60,496 bases of DNA, filler included, from Candidatus Woesearchaeota archaeon (GCA_046538795.1; 5 parts of 5 records of this genome joined end to end with filler, not necessarily neighbours in it); one strand, 5' to 3'; positions 12,538-57,204 are shown, counted from the whole stretch's first letter. Program-made: numbers and translations. The notes: a model not told the origin generated them from the sequence alone.

Positions 12538-12637
12538 NNNNNNNNNNNNNNNNNNNNNNNNNNNNNNNNNNNNNNNNNNNNTTAATTAATTAANNNNNNN
12601 NNNNNNNNNNNNNNNNNNNNNNNNNNNNNNNNNNNNN
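12538..12637. other. Artificial contig linker
   Basis: 44 N + TTAATTAATTAA + 44 N. Confidence 0.99.
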
Positions 12638-24815: not shown

Positions 24816-24915
24816 NNNNNNNNNNNNNNNNNNNNNNNNNNNNNNNNNNNNNNNNNNNNTTAATTAATTAANNNNNNNNNNNNNNNNNNNNNNNNNNNNN
24901 NNNNNNNNNNNNNNN
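24816..24915. other. Artificial contig linker
   Basis: N-TTAATTAATTAA-N. Confidence 0.99.
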
Positions 24916-36957: not shown

Positions 36958-37057
36958 NNNNNNNNNNNNNNNNNNNNNNNNNNNNNNNNNNNNNNNNNNN
37001 NTTAATTAATTAANNNNNNNNNNNNNNNNNNNNNNNNNNNNNNNNNNNNNNNNNNNN
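36958..37057. other. Artificial contig linker
   Basis: N-TTAATTAATTAA-N. Confidence 0.99.
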
Positions 37058-37283
37058 AAACTAGATACATTTGTTACTCGCCAACGTGATATATTCATTA
37101 TCGATATAAATAGTTTTGATGTATTTGAAGTGGGTTTGTAAGCTGAAATATAAGTCTATCTAGTTATGGAATATATTTTGGATTTATGACTTAAAGAGGG
37201 ATTTCAAAGAAATCAAGTTGACAAAACCTGTTTAAAACATAAATTTAAATATTACATAAAATTATTCTACACAGGTGATTATC

Positions 37284-37475
37284 ATGAGTTCATTAACTAT
37301 AGAACAACTTCACGAAGATATGCTTGGTTTGAAAAAAGAAGTTAAACATTTACGTAAAGTTATTGAAGAAGACTATGAACTTGCTGATGATGTTATTGAT
37401 GATATTGAAAATTCCAAATCCCGTGACTCTAAAGAAATGATTTCTCACGAAGAAATGCGAAATGAGTTTGCTTAA
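37284..37475 (+). CDS. Putative antitoxin
   Basis: Acidic 63-aa ORF ending ISHEEMRNEF, upstream of RelE. Confidence 0.7.
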   Translation: MSSLTIEQLHEDMLGLKKEVKHLRKVIEEDYELADDVIDDIENSKSRDSKEMISHEEMRNEFA

Positions 37476-37476
37476 G

Positions 37477-37731
37477 ATGACATCTGTTGAATGGGATCCC
37501 AAAGCAAGAGAATTTCTTCGTAAACTACCCAAACATGTTTCTAGTTTTATCTTTAATAAAGTCGATAAAGAAATAATTTTGAACGTAGAAAGACACTTAG
37601 AATCTCTAGTTAAAAGAGAGGAAAAGAAGATTAGATGTGGGGATTATCGACTTTTTGTATACTATAATAAAAATAATGATCACCTCATAATACGTGCGAT
37701 AAGACATAGAAAAAATGCTTATAAAAGGTAG
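37477..37731 (+). CDS. RelE/ParE-family toxin
   Basis: KAREFLRKL, KIRCGDYRL, IRHRKNAY. Confidence 0.88.
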   Translation: MTSVEWDPKAREFLRKLPKHVSSFIFNKVDKEIILNVERHLESLVKREEKKIRCGDYRLFVYYNKNNDHLIIRAIRHRKNAYKR

Positions 37732-38115
37732 CAAGTTTTCTCGATTTTGTATAATTTGGATTATATGCGTTTGCAAATATTGTCATAGGTAAAGTATTAC
37801 TTAAAATCTATCTAAAATAGCAGGTTATATTAACAAGTATTAATAGAGTACTATTTTATGGTTCAAATAATAAACCTAAAAAACAAACTTATCGATTTTT
37901 CTCTTGAAATTGATGCAGATGCAATTGCGACAATTTTGACGATTTTAATCGTGATGATTGCCACAATAAGGGTTTTAAATCAACTGATTTAAAGCTAACG
38001 GGCACGTTCAGGGCCCATTCTATTTCTAATTGAAATTCTGAGTAATGAAGAAAATAATTAAATTGTAACTGGTCTATGATTGAAAAAGATAAGAGCTTTA
38101 AACCAGAAGTAAGAA

Positions 38116-38211
38116 AGCCTTTGGAGGGACTTGAACCCCCGATCTCCTGATTACTTTTTCAACTTTAGTTGAAATACAAGTCAGGTGCATTAGCCACTAT
38201 GCTACAAAGGC
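38116..38211 (-). tRNA. tRNA-Thr (TGT) with a 23-nt intron at 37/38 (38152-38174)
   Basis: Acceptor GCCTTTG/CAAAGGC; CCTGA-CTTGTA|A-TCAGG after splicing; intron hairpin TTCAAC-TAAA-GTTGAA. Confidence 0.93.
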
Positions 38212-38259
38212 GTAATAAGTCCAAAGAACTCGTATTTCTTTTATAAAGTTTTCTACAGT

Positions 38260-39981
38260 TCACTTGTGTTTTTCGTGTTTGGGATGTTCGTGTCCTGCTT
38301 TTTTTCTTTTTTGAAGATGATTGATGTGAGCTATCTTTTCTTTTAAGAACTTGTTTGTGCTTAGCCTGTTGTTTTCAATCATTGTTGAAAAATGCTTTCC
38401 TCCTAAAAAATGAGGCATGATTACATATGTTGCTCCTTCATCATAAAGTCTTACTGCATCATCTATCTGGTGGGATACTACAGAGATCATTGCTTTTGAG
38501 TTTGTTTCTTTAACCTTGTTTATGATAAGCAGATTTGTATCTATTTCAGGGATTGTTGAAATCACCATCTTTACATTTGAAAAATTAAGCTCATCCAAAA
38601 GCTCTGAATCATTTGCATCACCATACATGCAGTCATAGTCTTCATTCATGAGACTGGTGATAACCTCAGGATCATAATCTATTATCAGGAATTTTTTCTT
38701 GATTTTTTTCAATGATTCAAGGATATCAAAACCAATCCTATTGTATCCGAATAGTATTATTTCATGATTTAGAGGATTATGATGCTTGCGCTGATCAACT
38801 TTTTGTCCTTTTCTTTCAAATATAGATAGGTATTTTGATATGGCAGGATATATTTTATTAGAATAAAGTATCATGTAGGTAGAGCCTGCAAATGTTATGA
38901 GGCCAACTGCAGTTACAAGTGATAGTGTCTCGTTTGTAAGGTGGCCTACAGAAACACCCATGGTTATGACTATAAGAGAAAATTCGCTTATTTGTGCAAC
39001 AGTTAGTCCTGCAAGAAAACTGTTTCTTTTTGTGTATCCAAAAAGTCCCATCAAGGTCATGACGATTAGAGGATTTCCAATCAGTACGAAAAGAGATAAG
39101 AGGATGATTATGCCTATATTTTGAAGGATATTTGAAAATATCATCTGAGATCCGAGCATTATGAAAAACAGTATGAGGAAGAAATCCCTTAATGGTTTCA
39201 TCTTTGAACTTATCTCAAAATGATAAGGAGACATGGATAATGTGATTCCTGCAAGAAGAGCTCCTGCTTCTATTGAAAAATTAAGATAATGGAATGCTGA
39301 TGCAACAAAGAAACACCACGCAAGAGAAAAAAGCAGGAGAAATTCCTGTGATCTTGCAATCACTTTCGTAAGTTTTGGAAGAACATATATTGTTATTATG
39401 AAAAGAACAAGTATTCCTCCCACACCTTTCAGAAGCGTATCTACAGCCATTCTTGTAAGATTCACTCCTGAATTAAGTGATGAGATTACAAGAAGAATTA
39501 GTATTGCGACAAAATCCTGTATTATAAGAAATCCAATTGATATTTTTCCATAAAGAGATTCAAGATCCTTCTTGTCAGACAAGAGTTTCATTATTACGAT
39601 TGTGCTGCTGAATGCAAGAGCTATCGCAACATATAATGAGACAGTGTTTGAAAAACCAAGGGCTTTTGCGATAAAGAATCCTATGGAAGTTGTAAATATG
39701 ACCTGTCCAAGTCCTGTGATCAATGATATCTTTCCTACTTCTTTTATGACTTTTGGATTTAGGTTAAGTCCAACCAAAAAAAGAAGAAGCGCAACACCTA
39801 TGTGAGAAAAAGCAGTGAGAGTATCAGTCGAATTAATAATGTTGAATACTACAGGTCCTGCAATTATTCCGCTTAATATGTAACCAATCACAGCAGGCTG
39901 CTTTAGAAATCCCAATATTCCTGTAGTTATTACTGTTATTACAAGTATCTTGCTAAGCTCAATAAAAATCTCTGGATTCAT
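38260..39981 (-). CDS. CPA2 cation:proton antiporter with RCK (TrkA-N) domain
   Basis: About 13 TM helices, SSTIV, QD, QISEFS; C-terminal GYNRIG. Confidence 0.92.
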   Translation of the reverse strand: MNPEIFIELSKILVITVITTGILGFLKQPAVIGYILSGIIAGPVVFNIINSTDTLTAFSHIGVALLLFLVGLNLNPKVIKEVGKISLITGLGQVIFTTSIGFFIAKALGFSNTVSLYVAIALAFSSTIVIMKLLSDKKDLESLYGKISIGFLIIQDFVAILILLVISSLNSGVNLTRMAVDTLLKGVGGILVLFIITIYVLPKLTKVIARSQEFLLLFSLAWCFFVASAFHYLNFSIEAGALLAGITLSMSPYHFEISSKMKPLRDFFLILFFIMLGSQMIFSNILQNIGIIILLSLFVLIGNPLIVMTLMGLFGYTKRNSFLAGLTVAQISEFSLIVITMGVSVGHLTNETLSLVTAVGLITFAGSTYMILYSNKIYPAISKYLSIFERKGQKVDQRKHHNPLNHEIILFGYNRIGFDILESLKKIKKKFLIIDYDPEVITSLMNEDYDCMYGDANDSELLDELNFSNVKMVISTIPEIDTNLLIINKVKETNSKAMISVVSHQIDDAVRLYDEGATYVIMPHFLGGKHFSTMIENNRLSTNKFLKEKIAHINHLQKRKKAGHEHPKHEKHK

Positions 39982-40069
39982 TCAATATATTTTACAAGGA
40001 AGCCTTATATAAATTTTTCCAGATTGCTGCACAATTTATATAAAGAATCACTACATTTCCAAACTCAAA

Positions 40070-40369
40070 ATGGCATTCAGCAAATCATTTCCAAGGAGAG
40101 GAGAAGGATCATATCCTGTTTGGGAGGATATATATCTTACTAAAGAGGAAGAAACAGAATCTGAAAACAAGGCAAGAAAAGAGAACTACAAGATCATGGC
40201 AGAATGCATAAAGGATGCACAGTTGATGTTTGAGAAAATGAATCTTACAAGATATCAGCCCGATATCATGAATGTTGCAACCTCATTGTTCGAAAAAAGA
40301 GCATCTCATGAGATATTCTTCAAGGAAGCCTTATGCAAGGAAAAATTCGACAAGAAGTACAATGAGTGA
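40070..40369 (+). CDS. Hypothetical protein
   Basis: 99-aa ORF with an upstream TATA box. Confidence 0.7.
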   Translation: MAFSKSFPRRGEGSYPVWEDIYLTKEEETESENKARKENYKIMAECIKDAQLMFEKMNLTRYQPDIMNVATSLFEKRASHEIFFKEALCKEKFDKKYNE

Positions 40370-40763
40370 TTATAGACGAAAAAGCAAGCAGAAGAATATT
40401 CCTAATCTTTATCTTTTTACACAGTTGTCTCTTATAGCCTATGGTGCATTTGCAAACACTACTGTATTCTTAAGCGAAAATCCTGTCTTGAGAAACAAGA
40501 TAAGCAACATAAACATAATAATAACAATCATATGGATGCTTTCAAATCTTATACTTTTCATATTTTTTAATACATTTAACTATGAAAAAGAAGCAAGGAT
40601 CTTTTCAGGGTACAACTTTCTGATAAATGCATTCAACCTAAGCAACATATTGTTCCAGTATATAGATAACTGGAGATTGTTGTTTTATTTTTCTGTAACT
40701 GTCAAGCTTTTTGAACTTACTGCATGCATAATACTTCTAAGGAAGAACAAGAACGAAAAATGA
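40362..40763 (+). CDS. Hypothetical membrane protein
   Basis: Four hydrophobic segments; overlaps the upstream stop. Confidence 0.6.
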   Translation: MSDYRRKSKQKNIPNLYLFTQLSLIAYGAFANTTVFLSENPVLRNKISNINIIITIIWMLSNLILFIFFNTFNYEKEARIFSGYNFLINAFNLSNILFQYIDNWRLLFYFSVTVKLFELTACIILLRKNKNEK

Positions 40764-41048
40764 TCATTTCTTATTGATATGAAGAAGCTTTTCTACTTCT
40801 TTTTCTGTCTTTGATTCAACAATATGCCCATCCTTGTTTGTCCTTTCAAACTTATCAAGCGCAAATATTGCTTCTGCATCTGCTCTTGCCATGGATATGA
40901 AAGAAGATATTCCCATCATGATGAAAACTATCATGAATGCAAAAGCCATGGAAGGCCATCTGTTCATCAGGTAAACAGTCGATATGAAAAATCCAAATAT
41001 CGCGATAAGAAGAGTTGAACTTGGTAGCGGTGCGTATTTTAATGCCAT
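40764..41048 (-). CDS. Small membrane protein
   Basis: Two TM helices. Confidence 0.65.
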   Translation of the reverse strand: MALKYAPLPSSTLLIAIFGFFISTVYLMNRWPSMAFAFMIVFIMMGISSFISMARADAEAIFALDKFERTNKDGHIVESKTEKEVEKLLHINKK

Positions 41049-41083
41049 AGTATGTTTTTGGAAGGCTGGATATTTATATTTTT

Positions 41084-42217
41084 CTACTTTGCTTTCAAAA
41101 TAAACTTATCTAAATCGTTTTTGGCAGCTTCACGTTTCTTTTGATGTTCTTCCAAAAATCTGGTAACTTTATCTATAAGAATGTTTTTTAGTTCTCCTGT
41201 AAGTAATTTCCCTGACTTGTAATCATCATATATTTTTTTAAGCTTTGAATCATTGTCTTCTAAGAAGGTAAGCCATTGGTAAGAGACATCGATATCAGGA
41301 TTTCCTCCTAATTCCCTGTGTTTTTCAATACTTTCCTGTCCTCCGGAAAATGCATACTTGTAGATCTTTTTCTTGACAGTTTTTGGATCATCTGTCGTGA
41401 ATATGGTTGCATTCTCGCCTGAAGATGTTGACATCTTTCCGTCTGAATCCATGCCTCCAAGACCTGGAAGAAATCTGCACTGTATAGATGCCGGCTTGTA
41501 ATATCCTAATTTAGGGATGACATCTCTTGAAACCCTGAAGTGAGGATCCTGGTCTATTGCATGAGGAATCAGGCATGGCATCTTTTTTCCCTTGATAATA
41601 CAAGGAAGAAATGCAGGAACAGCCTGAAATGATGTAAAGAATATTGAGCCGATGTTTGTTTCATTTGTAAAACCAAAACTTGATTTGACTGTGCTAAATG
41701 TGATCTTTTTTGCAACCTTCAAAGCTTCCTTGTACATTAGATCAGCATGCTCTGTATCGATTATTATATGCGTTTTCTTTGGATCAAAGCCCAGTGCAAT
41801 CAGGTCAAGAGCATTTTCTTTTGCCATGTTGTTTGTATCTTCTAAAGTCAGGTCTGGCTTGAAGAGGAATTTTTCATCGTCAGTCATCTGAAAGTATAAT
41901 TCAACATCAAAAACATCCTGAAGCCATTTTGTAAAAAACCAAGGAATCATGTGTCCTATGTGGGTATTTCCAGATGGTCCTCTTCCTGTATAAAGAAAAA
42001 ACTTGTTGCCTTTCTCATATTCGTCAAGTATGAACTTAAGATCCCTGTGCGCAAAAAAAATATTTCTTTTGAGATAATAGTGCGGCTCTTTTCCTGTTAT
42101 TTTTTTAATCCTTCCAACAAGAGCGTCATCTATCTTTGATACCCCAAACTCTTTGATTAGCTTGTCATAATCTATGTTTCCTTTCACTTCCCAGGGTGTT
42201 ACTATTGTTTTTGCCAT
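41084..42217 (-). CDS. trpS: Tryptophanyl-tRNA ligase (archaeal/eukaryotic type)
   Basis: VTPW, YTGRGPS..HIGH, IDQDPHFR, KMSTS, AFSGG. Confidence 0.96.
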   Translation of the reverse strand: MAKTIVTPWEVKGNIDYDKLIKEFGVSKIDDALVGRIKKITGKEPHYYLKRNIFFAHRDLKFILDEYEKGNKFFLYTGRGPSGNTHIGHMIPWFFTKWLQDVFDVELYFQMTDDEKFLFKPDLTLEDTNNMAKENALDLIALGFDPKKTHIIIDTEHADLMYKEALKVAKKITFSTVKSSFGFTNETNIGSIFFTSFQAVPAFLPCIIKGKKMPCLIPHAIDQDPHFRVSRDVIPKLGYYKPASIQCRFLPGLGGMDSDGKMSTSSGENATIFTTDDPKTVKKKIYKYAFSGGQESIEKHRELGGNPDIDVSYQWLTFLEDNDSKLKKIYDDYKSGKLLTGELKNILIDKVTRFLEEHQKKREAAKNDLDKFILKAK

Positions 42218-42227
42218 CTTTATCTAA

Positions 42228-42689
42228 TTACCTTGTTTCTTTATTTAAAAGTTTCTCAATAATAGCTTTTGCATTATCTCTTGTCGCAGGGAATGCAGCC
42301 ACTGATATCTTTATGTGATAGCAGTTTCCTTTGTCTGTAATTTTTGTCTTTTTTTCAAGCCAATTTTTTTTGTCAAATCTTATGAAAAAATGGTTGTGAT
42401 CGTCAAGTCTTGACTCAAGCTGCTTTTTAACCATCTCAATATCAATTTTGTCCATTAAAGAAACAAGATTTTCCAAAAATTGTTTGGTGTGCCTGTTTTT
42501 TGAAAGTATTGCCTTGTATATCTTAATTTTTTTCTCGTTAAAACCTAAAGCAGTGTCTTCTAAGAGTTTCACTTTTTCTGAAGAAAGATCAAACGGAAAC
42601 AATCTTAGAAATCCTTTTTTGATCTGCTCACCATCTTCATCTTCTTTTGAAAATACGGTTACCTCAATCTGATGTGCTATCTTTTCCAT
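42228..42689 (-). CDS. DUF54/COG1325-like RNA-binding protein
   Basis: ED...I, RLDD...FFIRFDK pattern. Confidence 0.75.
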   Translation of the reverse strand: MEKIAHQIEVTVFSKEDEDGEQIKKGFLRLFPFDLSSEKVKLLEDTALGFNEKKIKIYKAILSKNRHTKQFLENLVSLMDKIDIEMVKKQLESRLDDHNHFFIRFDKKNWLEKKTKITDKGNCYHIKISVAAFPATRDNAKAIIEKLLNKETR

Positions 42690-42743
42690 TGCATGTTGTA
42701 ATCCTTTTTGATATTTAACATTAATGATTTTTTAATCTTATTT

Positions 42744-42824
42744 AGTTTCGTATTTCTATAAATAATTATATGTTGTTATTTTATGCTGTATTTTCAGGAA
42801 TATTTATAAATGAGTTTCGTATTT
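42744..42824 (+). promoter_or_regulatory. Paired AGTTTCGTATTT sites (42744, 42813) around the TATA box of the first recombinase-like gene
   Basis: Exact 12-mer twice; the second copy is 2 nt after TTTATAAA. Confidence 0.6.
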
Positions 42825-42875
42825 AATTAACTAGTTCGTGTGAAAGTGTTTTTTATTTGTTTTTGGTTGTAGACA

Positions 42876-43916
42876 ATGAGGTTTGATTCCAGGGAAAAAG
42901 ATAGAGCCAGTACTATTTCTGATAGTCCTGAGAATCTTAGGAAAATATCTAAAGAGATTGAAGATCTCATTTCATCAGTTTCAGACCAAAGAGACTTTCT
43001 TATTCTTGAATTATTGTGGAAATTAGGGCTTAACGCGAACGAACTTGTAAACCTGAAAATATCAGATATATCTTTTTCTGAAAAAACACTTGAGATAAGA
43101 GCTGAAAATACTAAGAACAAGCAGGCACGAACACTTATTCTCGACGAAAAGCTCTTGCACGAACTAAGATCTTATGTTGAAAAAAATAATGTTTCTGGAT
43201 TTCTTTTCTCGACCAGGCAGAGTCCCAGATTCTCTGTAAGAAGGCTTGAACAGATAGTTGGCAATTATTTTCTTTCTGGAAATGCAAGACTCACCCCTCG
43301 TCTTTTAAGAAAAATATTCATTGAGAAAAGTCTTTCAGATGGAAAAGACAAAGAAGAGATCGCAAGAAAAGCAGGCATAAAAGACATAGCCAAAAAGAAC
43401 TATCTTACAGAAGATGAATACAAGAAATTAATCTCCAACATATATGAGAAAAAACATATTCTGTTAACAGAGATATTATGGCGTACAGGAATAACTGTAA
43501 ACGAACTGGTAAATCTGAAAAAATCAGATTTCTCATTTTCCCAAAACATCCTTATAATACGTCCTGAGATTACCAAGTCTGGGCTTCCGAGAGCAATTAT
43601 TCTTCCAGAAAAACTTTCACAGGATATTAAGTCATACACAAAAGATTTCCCGCTAAGATCATTTATTTTCTCTTCACAAAAATCACAGCAGATATCACCT
43701 TTGAGAGTAAGACAGATACTATCATACTACTCAGAAAAATCAGGGCTTGAAACTATTGCAACACCTCAGGTTCTTAGGAATTCTCACATAGCGAACGCTC
43801 ACACGAACGGCGAATCTCTTTCTTCGATTGGAGAGCGCCTTGGAATCAAGCAGATGAACACGAACACCTATGCAAGCCTCCTCTATCCTGAGGAGAGGAG
43901 GGCAAGAGGGACATGA
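42876..43916 (+). CDS. Tandem tyrosine-recombinase catalytic-domain protein, predicted inactive
   Basis: Two copies of L...G....ELVNLK..D and TP..LR; box I Arg is N/T, HxxR His is R/Q; no core-binding domain. Confidence 0.85.
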   Translation: MRFDSREKDRASTISDSPENLRKISKEIEDLISSVSDQRDFLILELLWKLGLNANELVNLKISDISFSEKTLEIRAENTKNKQARTLILDEKLLHELRSYVEKNNVSGFLFSTRQSPRFSVRRLEQIVGNYFLSGNARLTPRLLRKIFIEKSLSDGKDKEEIARKAGIKDIAKKNYLTEDEYKKLISNIYEKKHILLTEILWRTGITVNELVNLKKSDFSFSQNILIIRPEITKSGLPRAIILPEKLSQDIKSYTKDFPLRSFIFSSQKSQQISPLRVRQILSYYSEKSGLETIATPQVLRNSHIANAHTNGESLSSIGERLGIKQMNTNTYASLLYPEERRARGT

Positions 43917-46900
43917 GACACAAGGAAAATTATGAGGAATGTGTAAGAAAAGATTATTGCAGGCAGAGCCATATCCTGCCTGTAATCTTCTTTGTATTCT
44001 TTATGATGATCTCGACAGCTCAAGCTCTGCCTGGAATTAATCTTGAGACAGAATCTAATTCCCACTCTTTTGATACTCTTCCAATCCTCGGAACTACGAC
44101 TCTTCAGCATGTGGTTAACACAACCTACAATGGATCTGCTTTAGGAACAAGGCTTGATGTTGACTTTGTGAAAGGAGACTATCCAGAGACAAAGTGGTGG
44201 AACGAAAACTACAGGTATAGAAAGCCCATAAGCTTTACATTGCCTTCTGGATTTGATAATCGCTTTGCAGCAGTCATAAGGCTCAACATATCAGGTCTTG
44301 TCAATCAGGGAAGGATGAGATCTGATTATGGCGATCTAAGGCTTATAGAAAATGATGAATCAATACCTTTCATAATCGAGGATTCAAGCGAAGATGGCTA
44401 CATCAAGATAGTTATGAGGCTTCCAGATTCTTCCAGAGCAAGGAACATGGACATGTATTTTGGAAATCCGTCTTCTTCACAATTCACAGATACACAGACA
44501 GAGAGCATATACAGGTTTATCGATCATTTCACAAGCCTTTTCAAGTGGAACATAACTAAAGGAACATTTGCTAATCCTGGCGAGGTATTGACATCAGCAA
44601 TAAACACAGAAAGCATGATAATTTTAAACAACCTGTCCGGCTACTATGATGAAAGCAGTGCAAAGACTGAAGATAAGCCTTATGCATTCATGTACAGGAT
44701 GAGGCTTGGTGTTAACTCATCCTCAAGCTTCTTATTATCACAGAACCCGAACTTTTCAGGAAGCAAGGCAAATATCACATTCCATTCAGACACAGGAAAT
44801 GCAACAATTTGCATAGCCTCAAGCTGTACTGATCATATCCTTGAAATAGCTCCGGATACATGGTATGACGTGCTGATCAACGCCACAGGATCTAATATCG
44901 AGATTAATCTTGACGGAGATGCAATTACAGAACAGACATACAATTTTGATGATGTATACATGGCATTTGCAGCAAATAATAGATCCTATGTAGATGACTT
45001 TAAGATATACAAGAGATTATCGACAACAACAACTGCATCTGAAGATAAAGAACAGGAGATTTTGAGAAAACATTCAACAGTCACTGCAAACGGAATATTC
45101 GGCTGGAGCTATGGACTTACAGGAATGGCAACAGATACATTTTATGTAAGGACAACTGCTGAAAAGAACAACTACATTTCAAACTCAAGCGTAGATATCA
45201 TAAATACTGAATATAAAAAGATTAGGATATCTGTATCTGAAGAAGGAACTGTGACATCGATTGCTGCAAGACATATGGCCATGGCCGATGGTTCAATCAC
45301 ATTCAGGAATCCTAATTCAAGAAATGTCTCATTGTCAGTCGATTATGATACTGAACTGAACCTGGTTGATTTCTCTGATGAATATTTCACAGATAGCACT
45401 ATAGTCTTCTCTCCTTTGGAAGCAGACTCTTCAGTAAAAATCAATTATTATCTGCATGGAGTGAGTACAGAAAATCCTGTTTCAGGAATTAATTCAATAC
45501 TTGGAACTGCCATAAAAAACGCAGGAGGACTAAGCAATTATTATGAGTTCTACGAGAATTCATTCACTACCATAAAAGATGTAAAGAAAGTAGAGGTCGA
45601 AAAAGATTCTACAGGAAAAACTATTGAGACAACCAGAGAAAATACATTTGTCCTTGAAGGTCTTACTGAAGAGTATGCCGGATTATCTTTCCAGGTAAAG
45701 AAGACTGTGTCCAGAACAAGGGTAGAGCCTGGAGATATAATTGAAGTCAGCATAAAGGTAGATAATGTAGATGTTGTTTCAAGAAAGATCAATCTATACG
45801 ACAGGATACCTGATGAATTCGTCTATGTCGAAGGAGTAAACAGGGTGATAAGGGACAAGGTGAACTTATCATGGAACTTTGATATAAACAGGAAATCTTC
45901 AAGGCTTGTGAAATACCGCATGATGTATACCGGAAATTCAACAGGTCATAAGATATTTGAGGCTGCAAGGCTTGAATCTCTCATAGGAAATATAACTTCA
46001 CAAAATATAACGCTTTTCAGAGATGTACCAAGAAGCACGTCTGCGTATGTGCAAAAGAATATAGTTTATATTGATCAGGATACGGCAAAGATAAAGATTA
46101 CTGTTGTAAACACAGGAGATTACACTCTTAAGAACCTGAGAATTACAGAGATGATAGGAAATGCAGATGTGCATGAGGAGTCAAAACTTTCATTGCTTCC
46201 AGGAGAATGGATCATAAGAGAGCTTGCGCCAGGACAAATATGGACGCTTGAATATGTTTCAGAAAATCATGAGCTTATCGAGAATACGCCTCAGGTTATA
46301 TCTGAATATGTCAATGTCGATACTGTGCAGAACCTGATTATTGAAAATGAAGAACATTCTATTCTGTCCTCTGAATCTATATGGAAAGAAGAGCGCTCAA
46401 GCATGTTATCCTGGATCATATTTATAATACTTGCTTCAGAACTTGCAGCCATGTTTGCCTACATTTACAGAAATGTGACAGTCGAAGACATGAAAGGCGG
46501 AATCAATAAATTCTTTGTCGAGATTGCAATAATATGGATGAAGTTCAGAGGGCGGTTCAGCAAGCTCTATGAAAGGTTGCCTGCAATACCTAAGAAAATA
46601 TTGCTTATGATAAAGAGAATCGGAATGCTTGCCGTATTTGCGTTTAAGCATGTGGTGATATTTACAAGACTCTTCTTTGTCTGGCTTGCAGAGACCGTGC
46701 CATTCTTATGGAAGATATTTGACAAGCTAAGAAAGCTTAATCCTTCAGAAAAGCTTCTGTTCTTTAAAATGATGACTGACTTTGCCAAAGACAAGATTAA
46801 AAAGATGATCGACTCAATCAAGAAATTCTTTAATAGGGGCATCTATGATAATAAGATTAATGTAGAGAAGATAAAGAGCAGCACTCAGAAACCAGACACT

Positions 46901-47062
46901 GGCAAAAATAATAATCCTGGCAAGGGAACCGCAGAAACAAATGAAAATAATAAGGAAAGTTCATTGTCTGAATTTGATGTTAAAATGCAGAAAGAAGCCT
47001 ATGAGCGCTATAAGGAAAGCCAGAGATTGATAGAAGAGATGATGAAAGACATGAAGAAATGA
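43913..47062 (+). CDS. Large membrane-anchored surface protein (DUF2341-like, lectin-like and DUF11-like domains)
   Basis: Signal peptide; WWNENYRYRKPI...DYGDLRL...YFGNP; KTVSRTRVEPGD...YDRIP; C-terminal TM and tail. Confidence 0.8.
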   Translation: MRHKENYEECVRKDYCRQSHILPVIFFVFFMMISTAQALPGINLETESNSHSFDTLPILGTTTLQHVVNTTYNGSALGTRLDVDFVKGDYPETKWWNENYRYRKPISFTLPSGFDNRFAAVIRLNISGLVNQGRMRSDYGDLRLIENDESIPFIIEDSSEDGYIKIVMRLPDSSRARNMDMYFGNPSSSQFTDTQTESIYRFIDHFTSLFKWNITKGTFANPGEVLTSAINTESMIILNNLSGYYDESSAKTEDKPYAFMYRMRLGVNSSSSFLLSQNPNFSGSKANITFHSDTGNATICIASSCTDHILEIAPDTWYDVLINATGSNIEINLDGDAITEQTYNFDDVYMAFAANNRSYVDDFKIYKRLSTTTTASEDKEQEILRKHSTVTANGIFGWSYGLTGMATDTFYVRTTAEKNNYISNSSVDIINTEYKKIRISVSEEGTVTSIAARHMAMADGSITFRNPNSRNVSLSVDYDTELNLVDFSDEYFTDSTIVFSPLEADSSVKINYYLHGVSTENPVSGINSILGTAIKNAGGLSNYYEFYENSFTTIKDVKKVEVEKDSTGKTIETTRENTFVLEGLTEEYAGLSFQVKKTVSRTRVEPGDIIEVSIKVDNVDVVSRKINLYDRIPDEFVYVEGVNRVIRDKVNLSWNFDINRKSSRLVKYRMMYTGNSTGHKIFEAARLESLIGNITSQNITLFRDVPRSTSAYVQKNIVYIDQDTAKIKITVVNTGDYTLKNLRITEMIGNADVHEESKLSLLPGEWIIRELAPGQIWTLEYVSENHELIENTPQVISEYVNVDTVQNLIIENEEHSILSSESIWKEERSSMLSWIIFIILASELAAMFAYIYRNVTVEDMKGGINKFFVEIAIIWMKFRGRFSKLYERLPAIPKKILLMIKRIGMLAVFAFKHVVIFTRLFFVWLAETVPFLWKIFDKLRKLNPSEKLLFFKMMTDFAKDKIKKMIDSIKKFFNRGIYDNKINVEKIKSSTQKPDTGKNNNPGKGTAETNENNKESSLSEFDVKMQKEAYERYKESQRLIEEMMKDMKK

Positions 47063-47078
47063 TCTTAATAAATGTTTC

Positions 47079-47164
47079 AGTTTCTTATTTTTACTAAAAA
47101 AAGCTATTTGCTTTTTTATTTTTCTGTTTATATTTGATAATATTTAAATAGTAGTTTCTTATTT
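47079..47164 (+). promoter_or_regulatory. Paired AGTTTCTTATTT sites (47079, 47153) around the TATA box of the second recombinase-like gene
   Basis: Exact 12-mer twice; the second copy is 2 nt after TTTAAATA. Confidence 0.6.
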
Positions 47165-47183
47165 TTAATAATTAAGGTAAATA

Positions 47184-47705
47184 ATGTCTTTGGAGTATCT
47201 GGATTTTAATACATGGATCAGTTTATATCATTCTATTGAGGATTTTCGAGACAGAGTCATCTTTGGAATATTATATGGTGCAGGCTGCTGCGAGAAAGAG
47301 CTTGTAAATCTAAAGATAAATGATATTGATTTTAAGAATAGATGTTTATCTTTTCGCTCATCAGGCAAAAAAAGGATTTCTTATCTGAATAAAGAAATAC
47401 TCGAAAACATCAGATGTTATCTTAAAGAGAATAAGAATGCAAAGAAAGATGATCTTTTATTTGTGACAAGACAGGGAAGAGGGTTGAGCGAAAAAAGAGT
47501 GCAGCAGATAGTCTCTGAAGTTTCTCAAAAAATTATTAGAAAAAAAATCGTTCCAAAGACATTAAGATATACGCACATAGCTCATGCTTTATGCAAGAAA
47601 GTTCCAGTATATTCCATTTGCTGCCAGACAGGTCTTAAATCTCAGAGAATAATACAGATAGCTGAATATGTAAATACAGGAAGGGAACAAAGATATGAAC
47701 TATAA
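47184..47705 (+). CDS. Single tyrosine-recombinase catalytic-domain protein, predicted inactive
   Basis: RDRVIFGILYGAGCCEKELVNLKINDI (Arg to Cys), PKTLRYTH, QTGLKS. Confidence 0.82.
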   Translation: MSLEYLDFNTWISLYHSIEDFRDRVIFGILYGAGCCEKELVNLKINDIDFKNRCLSFRSSGKKRISYLNKEILENIRCYLKENKNAKKDDLLFVTRQGRGLSEKRVQQIVSEVSQKIIRKKIVPKTLRYTHIAHALCKKVPVYSICCQTGLKSQRIIQIAEYVNTGREQRYEL

Positions 47706-48986
47706 GAAACATAGATTTAGCGGAAAAGAAATATTTGGATATGTGTTCATGATAGTTGTTGCAATCCTTCTATTGATTTCTTCCGGAAATATAACTGCTG
47801 ATAATAATTCCACTTTCAATTCAAGCATCAACACAACAATCAATAAGAGCAACATGACTTTGCCTGATGAAGTAAACAAAACTGTGAAAGATTATGATAA
47901 TGAATCACAGGCTGATTTGACAGATCCTGGATTCAAAATAGATGTTGTGATATTAAACCAAAGCACTGTGAATTATGATGTTAATGAGACAATATTTTTC
48001 GATGTGAACATAACGCTTAACGATATAAAGATATATTCGATAAATTCATTTGTTAGAATTTATCTTCCTGACAACACTTCTTTGAATATTACCAGGACGA
48101 ATTTTACTGAGAAATTCAGATTTTCTCCAGAATATGAAGGAGAATACACAATAAATGCAGAATCTGTTTTCATGAACATGACTTATAATGATTCAAAATC
48201 TTTTTATGCAAAGATAATGCCTGCTCAAAATAATACATATTATATTGAGAATAATTCTCTGAATAAAACCAAAAATAATCTATCAGCACAAAACATTACA
48301 GAAGAAATAATAAATGTCACTAAAAATAGCTCTGCTAACATATCATCAACAATAAATCAGACAAATAATGATTCCTTGCCAAACTTAAAAGATGAACCAG
48401 ATCAAAATATTTCAGAATCTATTTCAGAGATATCAAAAAATAAAACTATGAACATCTATCATGATGGAGAATATAATTTTTCAATTGAATTTGCCGATCA
48501 ATATTTTTATGAACATGGTCCTATAATAATTACAGGAAATGCTTCTTCTTATCTTGAAAGCAGATATTATCCTAAGGATGTTAAAATAAGCATGTATACA
48601 TTAGATAATCCTAAGAAAAAAACTGTCTGCAACATACTCGTAAATGGAACAAATCAGTTTTATTGTGAAATGAAATCAAGCCTTATAGAACTTACTGATT
48701 ATGTAGTGGAGATCGAGGCTGAACATGATGGAAAAAAGATATATTTTGAGGATTATTTTGAACTTAAGCTTTTTGAAGAAAAAAAGATTAATCTTGAAAT
48801 ACTCCTTTCACAAAAAGTTGAATCTGCTGAAAAGCAGGAAATATATGTGAATGCTACAAAGGATGAAAAAACCTTATCTGAAGCTCTTGTAGGCATACAG
48901 ATAACAGATCCTGATGGTGTTGTTTACAGCTTGTCATCTGAAGAGGTAAGAGATGGTTTATACAAGGCTGAATTTTTTGGCCTTGT
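47695..48986 (+). CDS. Secreted/surface glycoprotein, 3'-truncated by the contig end
   Basis: Signal/TM helix, dense N-x-S/T sequons, Ig-like beta segments. Confidence 0.75.
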
Positions 48987-49086
48987 NNNNNNNNNNNNNN
49001 NNNNNNNNNNNNNNNNNNNNNNNNNNNNNNTTAATTAATTAANNNNNNNNNNNNNNNNNNNNNNNNNNNNNNNNNNNNNNNNNNNN
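48987..49086. other. Artificial contig linker
   Basis: N-TTAATTAATTAA-N. Confidence 0.99.
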
Positions 49087-49629
49087 TTAAGATTATTCGC
49101 TAAATCCCAAGCTAAAGGATAGTATTTGTTTTTAATATATATGTTTTTAATTAAAATGACTAGTTTAGCATTTTTTTTAAGAGACTTTTTGATTTCTAGA
49201 AAAATTTTTATTAAATTTTTTAAATATATTTTGTAATTTCTTTGTTTTGAAAGATCTTTTTTATTTCTATCTAAATTAGTCTCTGTTAGATAAAAAGGTG
49301 GTGATGTAATACATAAATCAATTTTTGGAAGATTTATGTTATCTATTTTTAAAATGTTCTCGCAAATGATATTTAGAATTTTATTTTTACTATAATTAAC
49401 TTTATTTTTATTTATTTCAATACCCACTGTCTCTCGACCTAATTTTTTTGCTTCAATAAGAAATGTGCCAAATCCGCAAAAAGGATCCAATACAACATTT
49501 TTTTTTTGAAAAAGTATTTATCAATCTTTTAGCAGTTTCATTAGGAGTACTAATTCTTAAGGGATCATATTTAACAGGTACTCCGGAAAAATCATTTTTA
49601 TTTTTAAACCATGATAAATCAAGCTTCAT
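49087..49629 (-). pseudogene. SAM-dependent amino-methyltransferase (N4C/N6A or Trm11-like), frameshifted at an A10 run and truncated by the contig end
   Basis: LDPFCGFGT (motif I), ITSPPFY (motif IV); the ATG at 49629 is out of frame with the motifs across the run at 49498-49507. Confidence 0.75.
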
Positions 49630-50723
49630 TCTTTGGTCCCATAAACAATTTTTTTAGCGATTAATCTATTTTTCTTAACTTTTTCTTGATGTTCTCTTAA
49701 AAAATCTGTAAGGAAGTCAATACAAATTTTTTTAAGTTCTCCTGTTAACAGTTCTCCACTATTGTATTTTGTATAAACTTCTTTTACAAAATCATCATTT
49801 GGATGGTGGTAAAATAATATCTCATACGCTTTATCTTTTTCAGGTATGCCGCCTAATTTTTTATGGAGTTCCACAGTTTCTCTCCCTCCAGAAAAAGCTT
49901 TATTGATTTTTTTTCGCATATTTTCAATTGAATCATCTAAAAAAATAGCAGTATCAGGAATTGATGCACTCATCTTACTTCCTTCTTGTAATCCTGATTG
50001 ATGCAAAAAATAAAAAAAGGATGGTAATTTTAGATTGTAAGACAGTCTTCTTGCTAAATCTCTGCAAGCTCTTGCGTGAGGATCTTGTTCAACGCCAACT
50101 CCTGTAATCGTAGGTGTTGGTCCAAAATATTCTTTCAATTGTAAATGTAGGATATCTGAATATTGTAATAAATTTGCAGAAATTTTTCCAAGATTCATAT
50201 GCCCATATATTGCCTTAAAAGAGTTTTCAGTTATTTTTTTTGAAAGTTCAAAAGCAAACTCATAATATCTTGACTCTTTTCTACTTTGAACATATATTTC
50301 TTCTTTGGAGATTCCTAATGCTAACAGATGTGCTATTAAATTAGTAGCATTTTCTTTTGCTACCTCTAAACTAGAAACTTTTGTATCGGGTCGTGAAACG
50401 TAAGCATCTATATCTGAAACAACAAAAAAACTTTTTGCACCTAGTGATTTGAATAATAAGAATGCGTCTATGTCTACTTTATGACCAAGATGTAATGGAC
50501 CTGACGAAGCAATTCCTGTAAGTTGAATAAAATCCTTTTTATCATTTATGTGTTTTTTAATTATCTCAAAATCACGATGAGCTATGATAATATTTCTGGT
50601 AAAAAGATAGTGTTTAGAAGGAATTTCTGATTTTTTAAACCTTTTTAAACCAAATTGTTTGATTAACTTATCATCTATTTTAACTTCTTTTGATCCCCAA
50701 GGATCTATTTCTTTGTTTGACAT
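49626..50723 (-). CDS. trpS: Second tryptophanyl-tRNA ligase (divergent paralogue)
   Basis: IDPWG, IAHRD, TGIASSGPLHLGH, EQDPH, KMSAS, AFSGG. Confidence 0.88.
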   Translation of the reverse strand: MSNKEIDPWGSKEVKIDDKLIKQFGLKRFKKSEIPSKHYLFTRNIIIAHRDFEIIKKHINDKKDFIQLTGIASSGPLHLGHKVDIDAFLLFKSLGAKSFFVVSDIDAYVSRPDTKVSSLEVAKENATNLIAHLLALGISKEEIYVQSRKESRYYEFAFELSKKITENSFKAIYGHMNLGKISANLLQYSDILHLQLKEYFGPTPTITGVGVEQDPHARACRDLARRLSYNLKLPSFFYFLHQSGLQEGSKMSASIPDTAIFLDDSIENMRKKINKAFSGGRETVELHKKLGGIPEKDKAYEILFYHHPNDDFVKEVYTKYNSGELLTGELKKICIDFLTDFLREHQEKVKKNRLIAKKIVYGTKE

Positions 50724-52365: not shown

Positions 52366-52734
52366 TTACTTAATAAATCTTACAAAAGGTCTTCCTTTGA
52401 ATTCTTTGTCTCCAGTTACAAAATCAATCTTATTTTCAAAGGCATACATATATCCAACAGCATCAAAAAATGAAATATTTTTTTTCTTGTTTTCATGCTT
52501 GAATTCAATTGCCTTGATCAGTGTTTCCATTTTTACAGAAACAGCGTAAGGATTAAATTTTTTATACCAGAACTGGGCAGTAGCCTTATTTTGATTCCTT
52601 AACATAACCTGATATAACTCTGCAAGTGTTATTTCTGTCAAAAGAAAATTCTCTGAGATAATACCGGTTAGTTCGGGATTTTGCTGAAATATTTCAAAAA
52701 TTGCATATGTATCAAGGCAGATCATCTTACTCAT
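52366..52734 (-). CDS. vapC: VapC/PIN toxin
   Basis: CLDTYA, TLAE, SFFDA, VTGDKEF. Confidence 0.88.
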   Translation of the reverse strand: MSKMICLDTYAIFEIFQQNPELTGIISENFLLTEITLAELYQVMLRNQNKATAQFWYKKFNPYAVSVKMETLIKAIEFKHENKKKNISFFDAVGYMYAFENKIDFVTGDKEFKGRPFVRFIK

Positions 52735-52948: not shown

Positions 52949-53138
52949 ATTTACACCTAAATGTATAACTTAGATGTATAATTTTTTATAAATTTTTTGT
53001 TGTTATATGGTGTTTTTATTTTTTAATAAGTTTTACTTACACTTTTCCGGAATATTTTCGAAAAGACTATGCTGGTTCCACATCTTTCCCAAAACTTATA
53101 AAAAGAATTGTGTATTATCTTACAAAAAGGTGAAGTTC

Positions 53139-54209
53139 ATGGATATTGAAGAGAAGATCAAACTTGTAAAAGAAGTCGGTGAAGAAATTATTGATGATTC
53201 AGAATTAAAAGATGTACTTTCTAAAAAAAATCTTATTGCTTATGACGGTTTTGAGCCTTCAGGAAGGATCCATATTGCGCAGGGTATTATGCGTTCTATA
53301 AATGTCAATAAGATGACTAAAGCAGGTGTTAAGTTTAAGATGCTTGTTGCTGACTGGCATGCGCTTGCAAACGATAAGTTTGGCGGAGACATGGACAAGA
53401 TAAGAAAATGCGGTAAATATTTTATCGAGGTCTGGAAGGCGTGTGGAATGGATCTTGAGAATGTTGAGTTTGTCTGGGGAACAGATCTTATCAATGATGA
53501 GGATTACTGGCTTAAGGTTATGAACATAGCAAGAGCAAACACTATAAAAAGAATGACACGATGCGCGCAGATTATGGGACGAAGTGAATCAGATGCTCTT
53601 TCTGCAGCACAGATATTCTATCCTGCAATGCAGTGCGCTGACATATTCCATCTTGATGCAGATATATGCCAGTTAGGACTTGACCAGAGAAAAGTAAATG
53701 TCCTTGCAAGAGAGGTTGCACCAAAACTTGGATTCAAGAAGCCGATAGTTGTTTCGCATCACATGCTAATGGGGCTTACTGAACCAGATCATGATGCAAC
53801 AGGAACTGATGCAGCTATCGCTAAAAAGATGTCTAAATCAAACCCTGATTCCGCAATATTCATGACAGATTCAGAAGAAGATGTAAACAGAAAGATCAAG
53901 AAAGCATATTGTCCTGAAAAGCAAGTTAAAGATAATCCTATACTTGAATATTGTGAATACATGATATTTGAAAGATTTGATAAAGTACTTGTAGAACGTC
54001 CTGAAAAGTTCGGTGGAAATCTTGAATTTAATTCTTATAAAGAACTTGAGACGAGTTTTGAATCAGGAAGCCTACATCCGTTGGATCTTAAGAACACTGT
54101 ATCTAAATATATTATTGAAATGATCAAGCCTGTCAATGAGTATTTTGAAAAGAATAAGGACGCAAAAAAACTTAAAGAAGAGGTTGAAAGCTTCAGTGTT
54201 ACAAGATAA
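53139..54209 (+). CDS. tyrS: Tyrosyl-tRNA ligase (archaeal type)
   Basis: YDGFEPSGRIHIAQG, YPAMQCAD, GLDQRK, KMSKS; start after a GGTGA RBS. Confidence 0.96.
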   Translation: MDIEEKIKLVKEVGEEIIDDSELKDVLSKKNLIAYDGFEPSGRIHIAQGIMRSINVNKMTKAGVKFKMLVADWHALANDKFGGDMDKIRKCGKYFIEVWKACGMDLENVEFVWGTDLINDEDYWLKVMNIARANTIKRMTRCAQIMGRSESDALSAAQIFYPAMQCADIFHLDADICQLGLDQRKVNVLAREVAPKLGFKKPIVVSHHMLMGLTEPDHDATGTDAAIAKKMSKSNPDSAIFMTDSEEDVNRKIKKAYCPEKQVKDNPILEYCEYMIFERFDKVLVERPEKFGGNLEFNSYKELETSFESGSLHPLDLKNTVSKYIIEMIKPVNEYFEKNKDAKKLKEEVESFSVTR

Positions 54210-55092: not shown

Positions 55093-57204
55093 ATGTCTTA
55101 TTTCAATAATTTTGATCGACAGTATGGTCATCCTTTAGGGAATTATTATGAGAACAGTGAGTCTTCTAAAGTAGATAATATGCTTGATCAGCCAATTGAA
55201 TCTACAGGAATTACTATAAAAGAAATGGGTGCAAGTGCAAACCCTTTTGAGCACCAGACAAAAGCCCTTATGGCAAGGATAAAAGAAGGAGCATCTCGTG
55301 TTGAGTTTTCTTTTATGGGACAAGGAAAAGGAAACAAGCAGTCTTTTACTCCTGAAACATTTGGTAATGTAGAACGTCAGGAAATGAGAGATCTTGCAAG
55401 GATTAATGAAGTTGAAACAAGCACGCATGCATCGCCAAACGTGGGTCCTTTATCTGGATTAGGACAACAGGGTTTTAATGATGAGCAGAGAAAGACTGTT
55501 ATAACTGAGATCAAAAAAGCTATTGATTTTGCAGCTGAAGCTACAACTGGCGGAGCAATAGTTTTTCACACAGGTGAATGGCAAAGATCAATAGAAGAAG
55601 AACGGTTTGGTGGAAATTTCAGGAAATTTAATACAACAGATGTGTACAAGAAACGTGAAGAGGACGGAATTCAAAAATGGGATAAGATTGATCCAAGAGA
55701 AGCAGACAAACTCAGTCAAAAAGACTGGAATTCAGGCATGTACAGACATGGCTCTGAACAGGATTCAATGCCTTACATGCTTGCAGATGCTGACACAGGA
55801 AAAGTTCAGGCAATAAGCCGTGACATGAAATTTTTTATGCCGGAAATTGATGCTAAAGCCACCGAAGAACTAAACAAGGGAAAACCTAAACAAGATCATA
55901 TTGACATATACAAAATAGAGGAAAGCGGTCCTGATAAGGGACAGGTGAAGGTTAAGGAATATACTTTTGATGATGTTTATGATGAGATAAGACGACGCAT
56001 GATGTCTGAAGGGCGTGAAGATGAAATAAGGGGGAAATCTAAAGGAGAGATTGTTCTAAGAGCATATCTTGATAAGGAAATCTCTCAGGCAAAGGGAGAT
56101 GCTCTTAGATGGTCTTATGGTGTTCCTGAAGAAAGAAAGTTTTACGAGAATCTTGTAAACATTGAATCTGTATTCAAGGAAAAACTTGATGAAGTGAGTA
56201 AAAATCCACAGTATCAGGGTCTTGACCAAAGCAATAAGATAAACGCAGCAAGAGCAGAAATGGACAGAGAATTAAGACAATTCATAAAATCTGATGGTAC
56301 TGTTGATAATGAAGAGCTCGATGGGATGAAAGAACGTCTTTTATCACAGATAAGAAGCGGTCAGTCAACAGGTTCAGCTTTAATGCAGCGTGCTGCAGAA
56401 TACCAAAAGCAGCTTAAGAACATGAGACCTATTGAGGAAGTTGGTCTAAAAAGGACAAGCGACACAATTGCAGAAGCTGCTGTTCATGCAATGGAGATGA
56501 ACAAGAAACACAGGAAAAATCTTAATCATGATCTTTATGTTGCTCCTGAAAGCTATGATACAAATCTTTACGGAGGACATCCTGATGAGATAAGGAATAT
56601 AATTGATAAGTCAAGAGAGGCATTTGTGCAGAAACTTATCAATAATAACAGGTATTCAAAAAAAGAGGCAGAAGAACTTGCTAAAAAGCATATCAAGGGA
56701 ACTCTTGATATTGGGCATCTTAACATGTGGAAGCAATATTTTGTAAAAAAAGACAATGAAACAAGAGAACAACATGACAAGAGATTCAACAACTGGATTC
56801 TTGATGAGACAGAGAAACTTGCAAAAGATGGCTACATAGGACATGCGCACGTTTCTGATAATTTTGGTTATGATGATGAGCATCTTGTTCCAGGTGAAGG
56901 AAATGCTCCTGTTGCTGAATTTATTCGAAGAATGAAAGGTGCTGGAATAAATGAATTCATACAGGAACCAGGAAGCTTCAATTATGAATATGCCTTAAGG
57001 CAGACCTGGAGAAATATGGGTATTGATATAGGAGGAGAATACAGGCCTATGGGACGAGAACGCGCTGTTCCAGGACGGGTTGATAAGTTTCTTAATTCTT
57101 ATTTTGGGCATACTGCAAAGCCTTCATATGTTTTCGGAAAATATAAGCCTAACACTTCAAACAATGACAAATCATGGACTCCGTGGTCAGGGACTCCTTT
57201 ATAG
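55093..57204 (+). CDS. Xylose-isomerase/AP-endonuclease-2 TIM-barrel protein with a large helical insertion
   Basis: STHA, VFH, APE, TLDIGH, HAHVSDNFGYDDEHLVPGEGN. Confidence 0.8.
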   Translation: MSYFNNFDRQYGHPLGNYYENSESSKVDNMLDQPIESTGITIKEMGASANPFEHQTKALMARIKEGASRVEFSFMGQGKGNKQSFTPETFGNVERQEMRDLARINEVETSTHASPNVGPLSGLGQQGFNDEQRKTVITEIKKAIDFAAEATTGGAIVFHTGEWQRSIEEERFGGNFRKFNTTDVYKKREEDGIQKWDKIDPREADKLSQKDWNSGMYRHGSEQDSMPYMLADADTGKVQAISRDMKFFMPEIDAKATEELNKGKPKQDHIDIYKIEESGPDKGQVKVKEYTFDDVYDEIRRRMMSEGREDEIRGKSKGEIVLRAYLDKEISQAKGDALRWSYGVPEERKFYENLVNIESVFKEKLDEVSKNPQYQGLDQSNKINAARAEMDRELRQFIKSDGTVDNEELDGMKERLLSQIRSGQSTGSALMQRAAEYQKQLKNMRPIEEVGLKRTSDTIAEAAVHAMEMNKKHRKNLNHDLYVAPESYDTNLYGGHPDEIRNIIDKSREAFVQKLINNNRYSKKEAEELAKKHIKGTLDIGHLNMWKQYFVKKDNETREQHDKRFNNWILDETEKLAKDGYIGHAHVSDNFGYDDEHLVPGEGNAPVAEFIRRMKGAGINEFIQEPGSFNYEYALRQTWRNMGIDIGGEYRPMGRERAVPGRVDKFLNSYFGHTAKPSYVFGKYKPNTSNNDKSWTPWSGTPL

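Follow-up and report, generated by a model that had tools for sequence, protein, structure and literature searches.

Why should an archaeal genome keep genes with the fold of a tyrosine recombinase, stripped of the residues needed for recombination and overlapping the genes of large exported proteins? The question is raised by positions 42744 to 48986 of the 60,496-nucleotide stretch analysed here (the window), from a Candidatus Woesearchaeota archaeon (GCA_046538795.1), where a unit made of such a catalytically dead Xer gene and a surface-protein gene occurs twice in succession. We propose that the dead Xer protein is probably an autoregulatory repressor, derived from the recombinase XerA and its dif site, which would set the dose of costly surface proteins. 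Five contigs of a single genome (1.34 Mb, 97.6% complete) make up the window; the linkers between them (12538-12637, 24816-24915, 36958-37057 and 48987-49086) are N runs with TTAATTAATTAA, and any open reading frames or neighbourhoods across them are artefacts. Both units sit on contig C21 (window 37058-48986). Their tandem arrangement is not an assembly artefact, because one assembled contig of sequencing run X1, possibly the source sample, covers 38175-48986 and one of run X2 covers 42931-48290; the runs containing the locus DNA are microbial mat metagenomes from two studies.

The first unit comprises gene A (42876-43916, plus strand), encoding 346 residues that form two fused dead Xer catalytic domains without a core-binding domain, as judged from Pfam, XerA alignments, residue counts and an AlphaFold model, and S1 (43913-47062, plus), whose start codon overlaps the stop of A in an ATGA at 43913-43916. 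S1 is an exported, membrane-anchored protein of 1049 residues; it carries 18 N-glycosylation sequons, and its hydrophobic segments lie at residues 21, 831 and 905. In the second unit, gene B (47184-47705, plus; Pfam, XerA alignment, residue counts and tree) encodes a single dead Xer catalytic domain of 173 residues and shares 11 nt (47695-47705) with S2 (47695-48986, plus). The contig end truncates S2, leaving the N-terminal 430 residues of an exported, sequon-rich protein (33 sequons and a hydrophobic segment at residue 13), and a record of run X2 extends about 2.5 kb further. The doubled unit and the two stop-start overlaps, first reported by a sequence-only reading of this DNA, can be read directly in the sequence. 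A third unit (G000:C63:4582-5685, locus L007) consists of a double-domain gene overlapping the gene of a 1100-residue exported protein, and of the six PF00589 matches in the genome, one is an intact XerA (on C95) and the other five are dead domains, two in A, one in B and two in the C63 gene. The closest homologues of A (56%) and B (57%) belong to records that both give 83,068 bases as the length of the longest contig, which suggests, from the records rather than from DNA, that the A-B tandem recurs outside this genome.

Pfam placed two PF00589 stretches in A and one in B, all above its cut-off, and found the N-terminal SAM-like core-binding family in neither protein. The catalytic domains begin within about 20 residues of the N-terminus, and Pfam scan, domain start and AlphaFold model agree with the earlier claim that the core-binding domain is missing. 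When the domains were aligned with XerA (PDB 4a8e and 5hxy, and the genome's own XerA), the box I arginine was found exchanged for asparagine, threonine and cysteine, the HxxR histidine for arginine, glutamine and lysine, and the LGH histidine for isoleucine, isoleucine and leucine, precisely the losses that had been listed from the sequence alone. The second arginine is retained in all three domains and the lysine in both domains of A.

These losses characterise a whole family. When 1.84 billion representatives were searched with a profile, 119 proteins reached E 1e-30 or better; for classification, the best 150 matches together with those found earlier gave a set of 155 proteins, from which 105 double-domain and 30 single-domain proteins were classed, this genome's included, while 22 partial domains and a further 13 belonging to long proteins were set aside. 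The first arginine survives in 5 of the first domains and 12 of the second domains (105 each) and in 1 of the 30 singles, and the HxxR histidine in 2, none and 4, respectively. The LGH histidine was absent from all first and second domains (0/105 each) and present in 2 of the 30 singles; these two, ordinary-looking recombinases, were dropped, leaving 238 domains, none of which kept more than 4 of the 6 catalytic residues even under a lenient rule for the tyrosine. The second arginine, by comparison, persisted in 100/105 first domains, 81/105 second domains and 29/30 singles. A compensated active site built on a C-terminal tyrosine was considered and ruled out: in the second domain of A the tyrosine lies one position ahead of the catalytic column, and across the family (n = 105) that column holds tyrosine in 44 cases, histidine in 28 and phenylalanine in 9, usually followed by glycine. 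Judged from the alignment, the tyrosine column is not a conserved nucleophile. The best-conserved columns are instead an arginine and a glutamine (0.92 each) in a helix aligned with the TRQ stretch of XerD, behind an F-x-x-R-Q-S loop. The second recognition helix of A deviates from the family consensus. According to the accessible part of Cortez et al. (PMC2958812), the outer bases of dif are read by a motif in the C-terminal domain. Five further proteins of 540-660 residues (P0237, P0241, P0253, P0259 and P0268) carry a pair of integrase catalytic domains, of which one or both seem intact in every case, and represent a different tandem architecture.

The AlphaFold model of A, built with 89 sequences, showed two confident domains (predicted local distance difference test, pLDDT, 93.5; predicted template modelling score, pTM, 0.86). 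The best structural match of the second domain was XerA 5hxy (Z 20.3, root-mean-square deviation 2.5, 164 residues aligned), with a second XerA at Z 19.4; the first domain was scarcely covered by the structure search and owes its Xer identity to sequence matches. SroF and MrpR/YopR matched the second domain at Z 12-14, a homodimer prediction for B scored 0.10, and in the ESM Atlas A matched generic integrase clusters only.

At 50% identity the family falls into more than 100 clusters whose members have open frames and share a conserved non-catalytic signature. With a threshold of E 1e-30, the double-domain profile matched 34 of the 401 genomes searched from the order, a count that includes one genome flagged unpublished and one presumed ordinary XerA, and all 6 other genomes of the host family hold a match. 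No orthologue of A with DNA context was found in 6 same-family genomes or in 80 metagenome loci (5 of dead class). In the phylum sample (401 genomes), short-frame matches to the single-domain profile were confined to the same order, and no relative was found in viral contigs by close alignment; these range figures are samples at strict thresholds, not proof of absence. Among the 39 genes available with DNA, 21 pairs were at least 50% identical; the ratio of nonsynonymous to synonymous substitution rates (dN/dS) was 0.10-0.43 in 9 of them, and synonymous sites were saturated in the other 12. Close family pairs are under purifying selection, with ratios well below 1, and neutral decay, which the sequence-only reading had set against a functional role, does not describe them. 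Its statement that the units are not a mobile element is likewise borne out by the housekeeping genes flanking the locus and by the lack of viral relatives.

The coupling to exported proteins was followed in 39 genes from 32 genomes and 17 families of the order, with downstream sequence for 38. The next gene overlapped or lay within 30 nt in 37 of the 38 loci, with gaps mostly of -4 or -8, and in 37 of 38 it encoded a hydrophobic segment within the first 100 residues, a feature found in 228 of the 1195 genes of this genome. As controls, 16 active recombinases were inspected; 7 had a next gene and none of these 7 was exported. Among the partners, 24 have at least 1000 residues, 6 more are cut by locus ends and 8 measure 174-907 residues, and 15 of the 19 scanned carry domains of Ig-like, LamG, DUF2341, MG2, Golvesin or CARDB type. 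Of five held-out genome singles, two were followed by an exported gene, one (L055) by a YhcG gene and then a giant protein, and two by none, so that the coupling to an exported next gene is strong, not absolute. Of the 80 metagenome loci, the 5 dead-class genes included 3 with downstream sequence, all 3 with an exported next gene.

Partners share modules and are mostly non-orthologous, the three of this genome having no mutual match at E 1e-10. S1 shows DUF11/DUF7507 below the cut-off (a DUF11 paralogue lies on contig C35), with DUF2341 clusters of the ESM Atlas as sub-threshold leads (under 0.9), and S2 is distantly similar to the giant partners at L032, L036 and L041. A 215-residue secreted partner (L021, L024, L031, L034, L056 and L144), without a Pfam match, is a stand-alone copy of the C-terminal domain of giants at L010, L012 and L020; it is possibly a filament or anchoring subunit, and its model has a pLDDT of 48. 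The two singles without an exported next gene, L057 and L059, have a promoter, and among their host-family relatives the partner is small and secreted; at L055, where the YhcG/DUF1016 nuclease gene stands between the dead Xer gene and its giant partner, the upstream site is present in three tandem copies.

The regions upstream of the units hold a candidate operator. Ahead of B, a TATA box (TTTAAATA, 47143-47150, plus; motif sampling and sequence) is followed by a 31-base-pair (bp) imperfect inverted repeat (47153-47183, strandless), recognised by palindrome and two-arm models, which lies between the TATA box and the start codon and ends one base before the latter; a further copy of its left arm (AGTTTCTTATTT, 47079-47090, plus) was located upstream by a genome-wide arm search. 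Ahead of A, the TATA box (TTTATAAA, 42803-42810, plus) ranks first when the upstream regions of the called genes of this genome are scored for TATA plus half-site. A left arm stands directly behind it (42813-42824, plus; motif sampling and arm search) with a degenerate right arm, and the genome-wide search placed another left arm, lacking a right one, further upstream (AGTTTCGTATTT, 42744-42755, plus). Four of the five genome copies of AGTTTC[GT]TATTT are upstream of A and B. Behind the TATA box of the C63 gene stands a near-perfect palindrome, the best of the genome.

Unseeded motif sampling of 38 upstream regions, restarted 12 times, converged on TATA plus left arm in 8 restarts and on the palindrome in 3. 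With a symmetrical palindrome model, 28 of the 38 regions exceeded the 95th percentile of local shuffles, and the same kind of model trained without this genome ranked the C63 site first and the B site (47153) second genome-wide. A palindrome scan of the genome for a wider regulon found only the family's own sites above background. The information of the motif resides in the outer arm, TTTC...GAAA, the inner positions being merely A/T. This is the pattern expected of a protein that kept the recognition helix and dropped the core-binding domain and the chemistry: outer arms conserved, inner bases free. A two-arm model with free spacing, judged against the 95th percentile of 285 AT-rich, TATA-containing upstream regions of this genome, passed 17 of the 19 double-domain genes and 20 of the 27 with a single domain, the B site scoring 13.0 against a threshold of 11.3. 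Site length differed between the two classes: the double-domain sites measured 29 bp in 16 of 17 cases and 28 bp in one, and the 20 single-domain sites 30 bp (8), 31 bp (6), 32 bp (4) or 29 bp (2); the two 29-bp singles are the very ones that the tree places apart from the other single-domain genes. The site follows directly behind a TATA match in 10 of the 17 scoring doubles and 10 of the 20 scoring singles; some upstream regions contain two or three copies, and at several loci another site precedes the TATA box. The full repeat alone, not TATA plus AGTT, is specific to family genes. A dif-like inverted repeat behind the TATA box, with a length that tracks domain number, is new here.

The accessible text of a review (PMC8371274) gives dif as 11+6+11. 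The sites described above differ from a single-copy element of that form, as they measure 29-32 bp and are present at each unit, and a dif-like pattern search of this genome at 2 mismatches gave no match. A strict TATA-plus-repeat pattern run over 185,579 genomes returned 9 matches, 6 with a family gene and 3 bacterial ones without; the 6 gene-bearing matches were already among the design loci, so the scan adds no independent support. As a separate observation, a strong promoter consensus, CGAAAC-ATTTATATA-TGAGTT, found in many upstream regions of this genome, precedes an ftsZ-like gene, an archaellin-like gene and surface genes, named by sequence appearance.

Taken together, the data are consistent with each unit being a small autoregulated operon of promoter, operator, dead recombinase and surface-protein gene. 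The dead recombinase would bind the dif-like repeat a few bases behind the TATA box, covering the expected transcription start, the single-domain form as a homodimer on a 30-32 bp site and the fused form as a one-chain pseudo-dimer on a 29 bp site; the fixed spacing of the fused class and the looser spacing of the single class fit one chain and two chains, respectively. In archaeal promoters, a site over the transcription start blocks polymerase rather than recruiting it, and the position of the repeat therefore points to repression, in which an occupied operator would block initiation. As the surface gene is translationally coupled behind its regulator, synthesis of the regulator would report on that of its partner, and the resulting negative feedback could set or switch the dose of glycoprotein. 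The fold, the lost catalytic residues, the selection, the gene coupling and the motif with its position and length covariation are observed; occupancy of the motif by the protein, repression upon binding, the dimeric state of the binder and the order of the evolutionary steps given below are inferred. The sequence-only reading had left open whether the fold was repurposed as a DNA-binding regulator or as an architectural protein. Repurposing is upheld by the lost catalysis, the missing core-binding domain, the gene coupling, the purifying selection and the lack of mobile-element context, with DNA binding as a predicted property. Of the two roles, a sequence-specific autoregulator is favoured by the conserved inverted repeat behind the TATA box and by the way its length varies with the number of domains.

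Where did such a module come from? In a quick tree of 113 domains, 63 dead domains fell on one side of a branch with a Shimodaira-Hasegawa-like approximate likelihood ratio test (SH-aLRT) value of 98, and the split survived removal of long branches (99 for 25 singles, 91 for the other actives). The lineage next to the dead domains consists of three active recombinases (L060, L061 and L063). Two of them, L060 (1190-1793) and L061 (1216-1825), have about 200 residues, the full catalytic set, no core-binding domain and a shared chromosomal position (near ftsZ in L060); both carry an upstream 11-6-11 dif-like repeat, directly behind the TATA box in L061. At the strict threshold, 8 of 401 genomes match this type, 6 of them strongly, and the present genome is not among them. 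Single-domain genes cluster by host family, B grouping with the singles of its own host family, and their phylogeny thereby fits vertical descent. Some full-length xerA genes of the order (L068, L069 and L074) also have dif-like repeats near the promoter, which suggests that xerA may be autoregulated in these genomes. From the unrooted tree we infer a series in which a Xer recombinase with dif in its own promoter would have lost its core-binding domain, then catalysis, and would finally have been duplicated and fused. Two observations concern xerA itself: the position of the dif-like repeats near the xerA promoter contrasts with Thermococcales, where dif is distant from xerA, and many xerA genes of the order, among the matches listed, begin within a few hundred bases of a contig end, which might reflect a repeat or an integration point ahead of the gene.

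Several points weigh against the repressor proposal and its history. Gene A itself has two left arms and no scoring right arm (two-arm score 3.1, below background), and one further double-domain gene, with a partly masked upstream region, lacks a scoring site. The two-arm model also passes 3 of 12 ordinary active recombinases; it was trained on most of the scored loci (leave-one-out), and the held-out singles pass in 3 of 6 cases. The TATA surroundings up to AGTT are a general strong promoter of this genome, other genes reaching 26 on the TATA-plus-half-site score. L057 and L059 have no exported next gene, and in L055 a nuclease gene intervenes. The dN/dS pairs exclude the window's own genes. 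Related genomes do not count as independent cases, and a single change in site length and a single one in domain number may account for the pattern; the trees are unrooted, from quick searches over 185 columns with long branches.

A protein that binds DNA yet activates, or bends it as an architectural factor aiding transcription of the very long gene, would be served equally well by the fold and by the conservation of helix and site, which suit any sequence-specific binder, and the second site upstream of TATA at several loci could be read in its favour. Half of the scoring sites, nevertheless, start just behind the TATA box, over the expected start site, and that of unit B stops one base ahead of the start codon; we regard such a role as rather unlikely.

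The repeats might alternatively be recombination sites for the intact XerA acting in trans, with the dead protein as accessory or gatekeeper and the units as excisable, invertible or exchangeable cassettes for phase or cassette variation. The repeat is dif-like in its arms and size, the units stand in tandem here, some upstream regions have two or three sites, the partner genes are mosaic and the genome does encode an intact XerA. On the other hand, the sites span 29-32 bp and not 28, the inner ATAA/TTAT beside the cleavage points are not conserved, no matching site was found behind the partner genes of this genome, no viral relatives are known from the contigs searched, and the singles group by host family, as in vertical descent; no joints at the sites were seen among the contigs of four runs, a weak argument as contigs drop rare forms. 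We hold this explanation to be unlikely, and equally so an elaboration in which promoter, dif-derived site and dead recombinase would form a portable cassette for host-attachment proteins, the site being both operator and Xer point and the dead protein masking it from XerA. If it were true, release of the dead protein would bring both expression and exchange of the giant gene, a programmed surface variation in symbionts.

That the protein acts instead on mRNA or on the nascent surface protein, as a translation or export helper, with the upstream motif a lineage-typical promoter, would agree with the strict translational coupling (gaps mostly -4 or -8), with the generic nature of TATA plus AGTT in this genome and with the lack of a full site at gene A. 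The right arm, however, is specific to family genes and its distance tracks domain number, two members persist without a surface gene, and the conserved residues are the DNA-reading ones, which make a role of this kind improbable. Decaying integrase remnants of old mobile elements that once carried surface genes might explain the patchy occurrence (34/401 genomes at the strict threshold), the long branches and the L035 member, seemingly split by stops, but this very improbable reading is already largely refuted by the open frames in more than 100 clusters with their conserved signature, the dN/dS values, the confident fold and the housekeeping flanks.

How does the family relate to known systems? 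With active tyrosine recombinases it shares the fold (PF00589; Z 20.3) and not the catalytic set R-K-H-R-H/W-Y, of which the window's domains lack R1, H and H/W, nor the core-binding domain. FimB/FimE-type invertases are short, active tyrosine recombinases that lie beside surface-structure genes and flip a fimbrial promoter. The dead family resembles them, as generally defined, in its position beside surface genes, and differs in lacking the catalytic set and in that no inversion was seen in contigs of four runs. XerA with dif (4a8e and 5hxy; PF00589) is closest, with the same catalytic-domain fold, the nearest solved sequences and an inverted-repeat target of similar size. Unlike it, the dead family lacks the core-binding domain and catalytic set, often has a duplicated domain, uses a 29-32 bp site with degenerate inner bases and is coupled to a surface gene, in a genome that keeps a separate intact XerA.

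MrpR/YopR and SroF (PF22823; 8a0a, 8bpz and 9rd5) are described in the accessible parts of PMC10516654 and bioRxiv 2025.11.27.690993 as sequence-specific master repressors of SPbeta-like Bacillus phages with a recombinase fold that has lost recombination; in these texts they retain the core-binding domain, bind DNA as a monomeric clamp and act on the prophage at many sites. The dead family is chromosomal, archaeal, restricted to the catalytic domain and closer to XerA, and seems to control its own operon only, through a palindrome, so that by analogy MrpR/SroF is a functional precedent to which the family does not belong. TnsF of Tn6022-like transposons, in the available portion of PMC10293859, derives from a tyrosine recombinase, has been inactivated and serves to recognise DNA, an active relative being its apparent ancestor; it is portrayed there as binding through tandem core-binding domains and selecting transposon targets, whereas the dead family keeps or duplicates the catalytic domain. 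Of the TnsF hallmarks given in that portion (tandem core-binding domains, zinc fingers, Tn7/Tsy context) none was found here, and no transposition genes lie near. A literature search, which did not cover supplements, found in the accessible texts neither a description of this dead-Xer family nor a recombinase-derived regulator of DPANN giant surface proteins; the available part of the review PMC8371274 does not mention DPANN or Woesearchaeota, and that of PMC8138268 does not contain 'inactiv'.

A part in host contact has been ascribed to the giant surface proteins of DPANN archaea, for nanohaloarchaea in the accessible part of PMC10266531, and the present work would supply such proteins with a named candidate regulator and a predicted operator, together with a sharp prediction of 29 bp for fused and 30-32 bp for single forms. 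Database labels of family genes, 'XerD' or 'integrase', would mislead if taken as signs of mobile elements; the genes rather mark large surface-protein loci. If the proposal is true, it adds an independent, cellular, archaeal case of a recombinase turned transcription factor, one in which apparent intermediates (active without core-binding domain, dead single, fused double) coexist in one order of tiny, symbiotic archaea.

Some other features of this genome were noted. The C63 unit adjoins a cluster of large exported-protein genes and a gene with a sigma-70 region 4-like helix-turn-helix (C63:6648-7232). Within the window lie a ParE-like gene (37462-37731), a PIN-domain gene (52366-52734) and, at a contig end, a DNA methylase fragment (49135-49490). 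Two tryptophanyl-tRNA-synthetase-like genes (PF00579) are found on different contigs (41084-42217 and 49626-50723), with a tyrosyl-like one at 53007-54209. Finally, positions 55093-57204 encode a 703-residue protein in which a TIM barrel of the xylose-isomerase/AP-endonuclease-2 type is split around a long helical insert.

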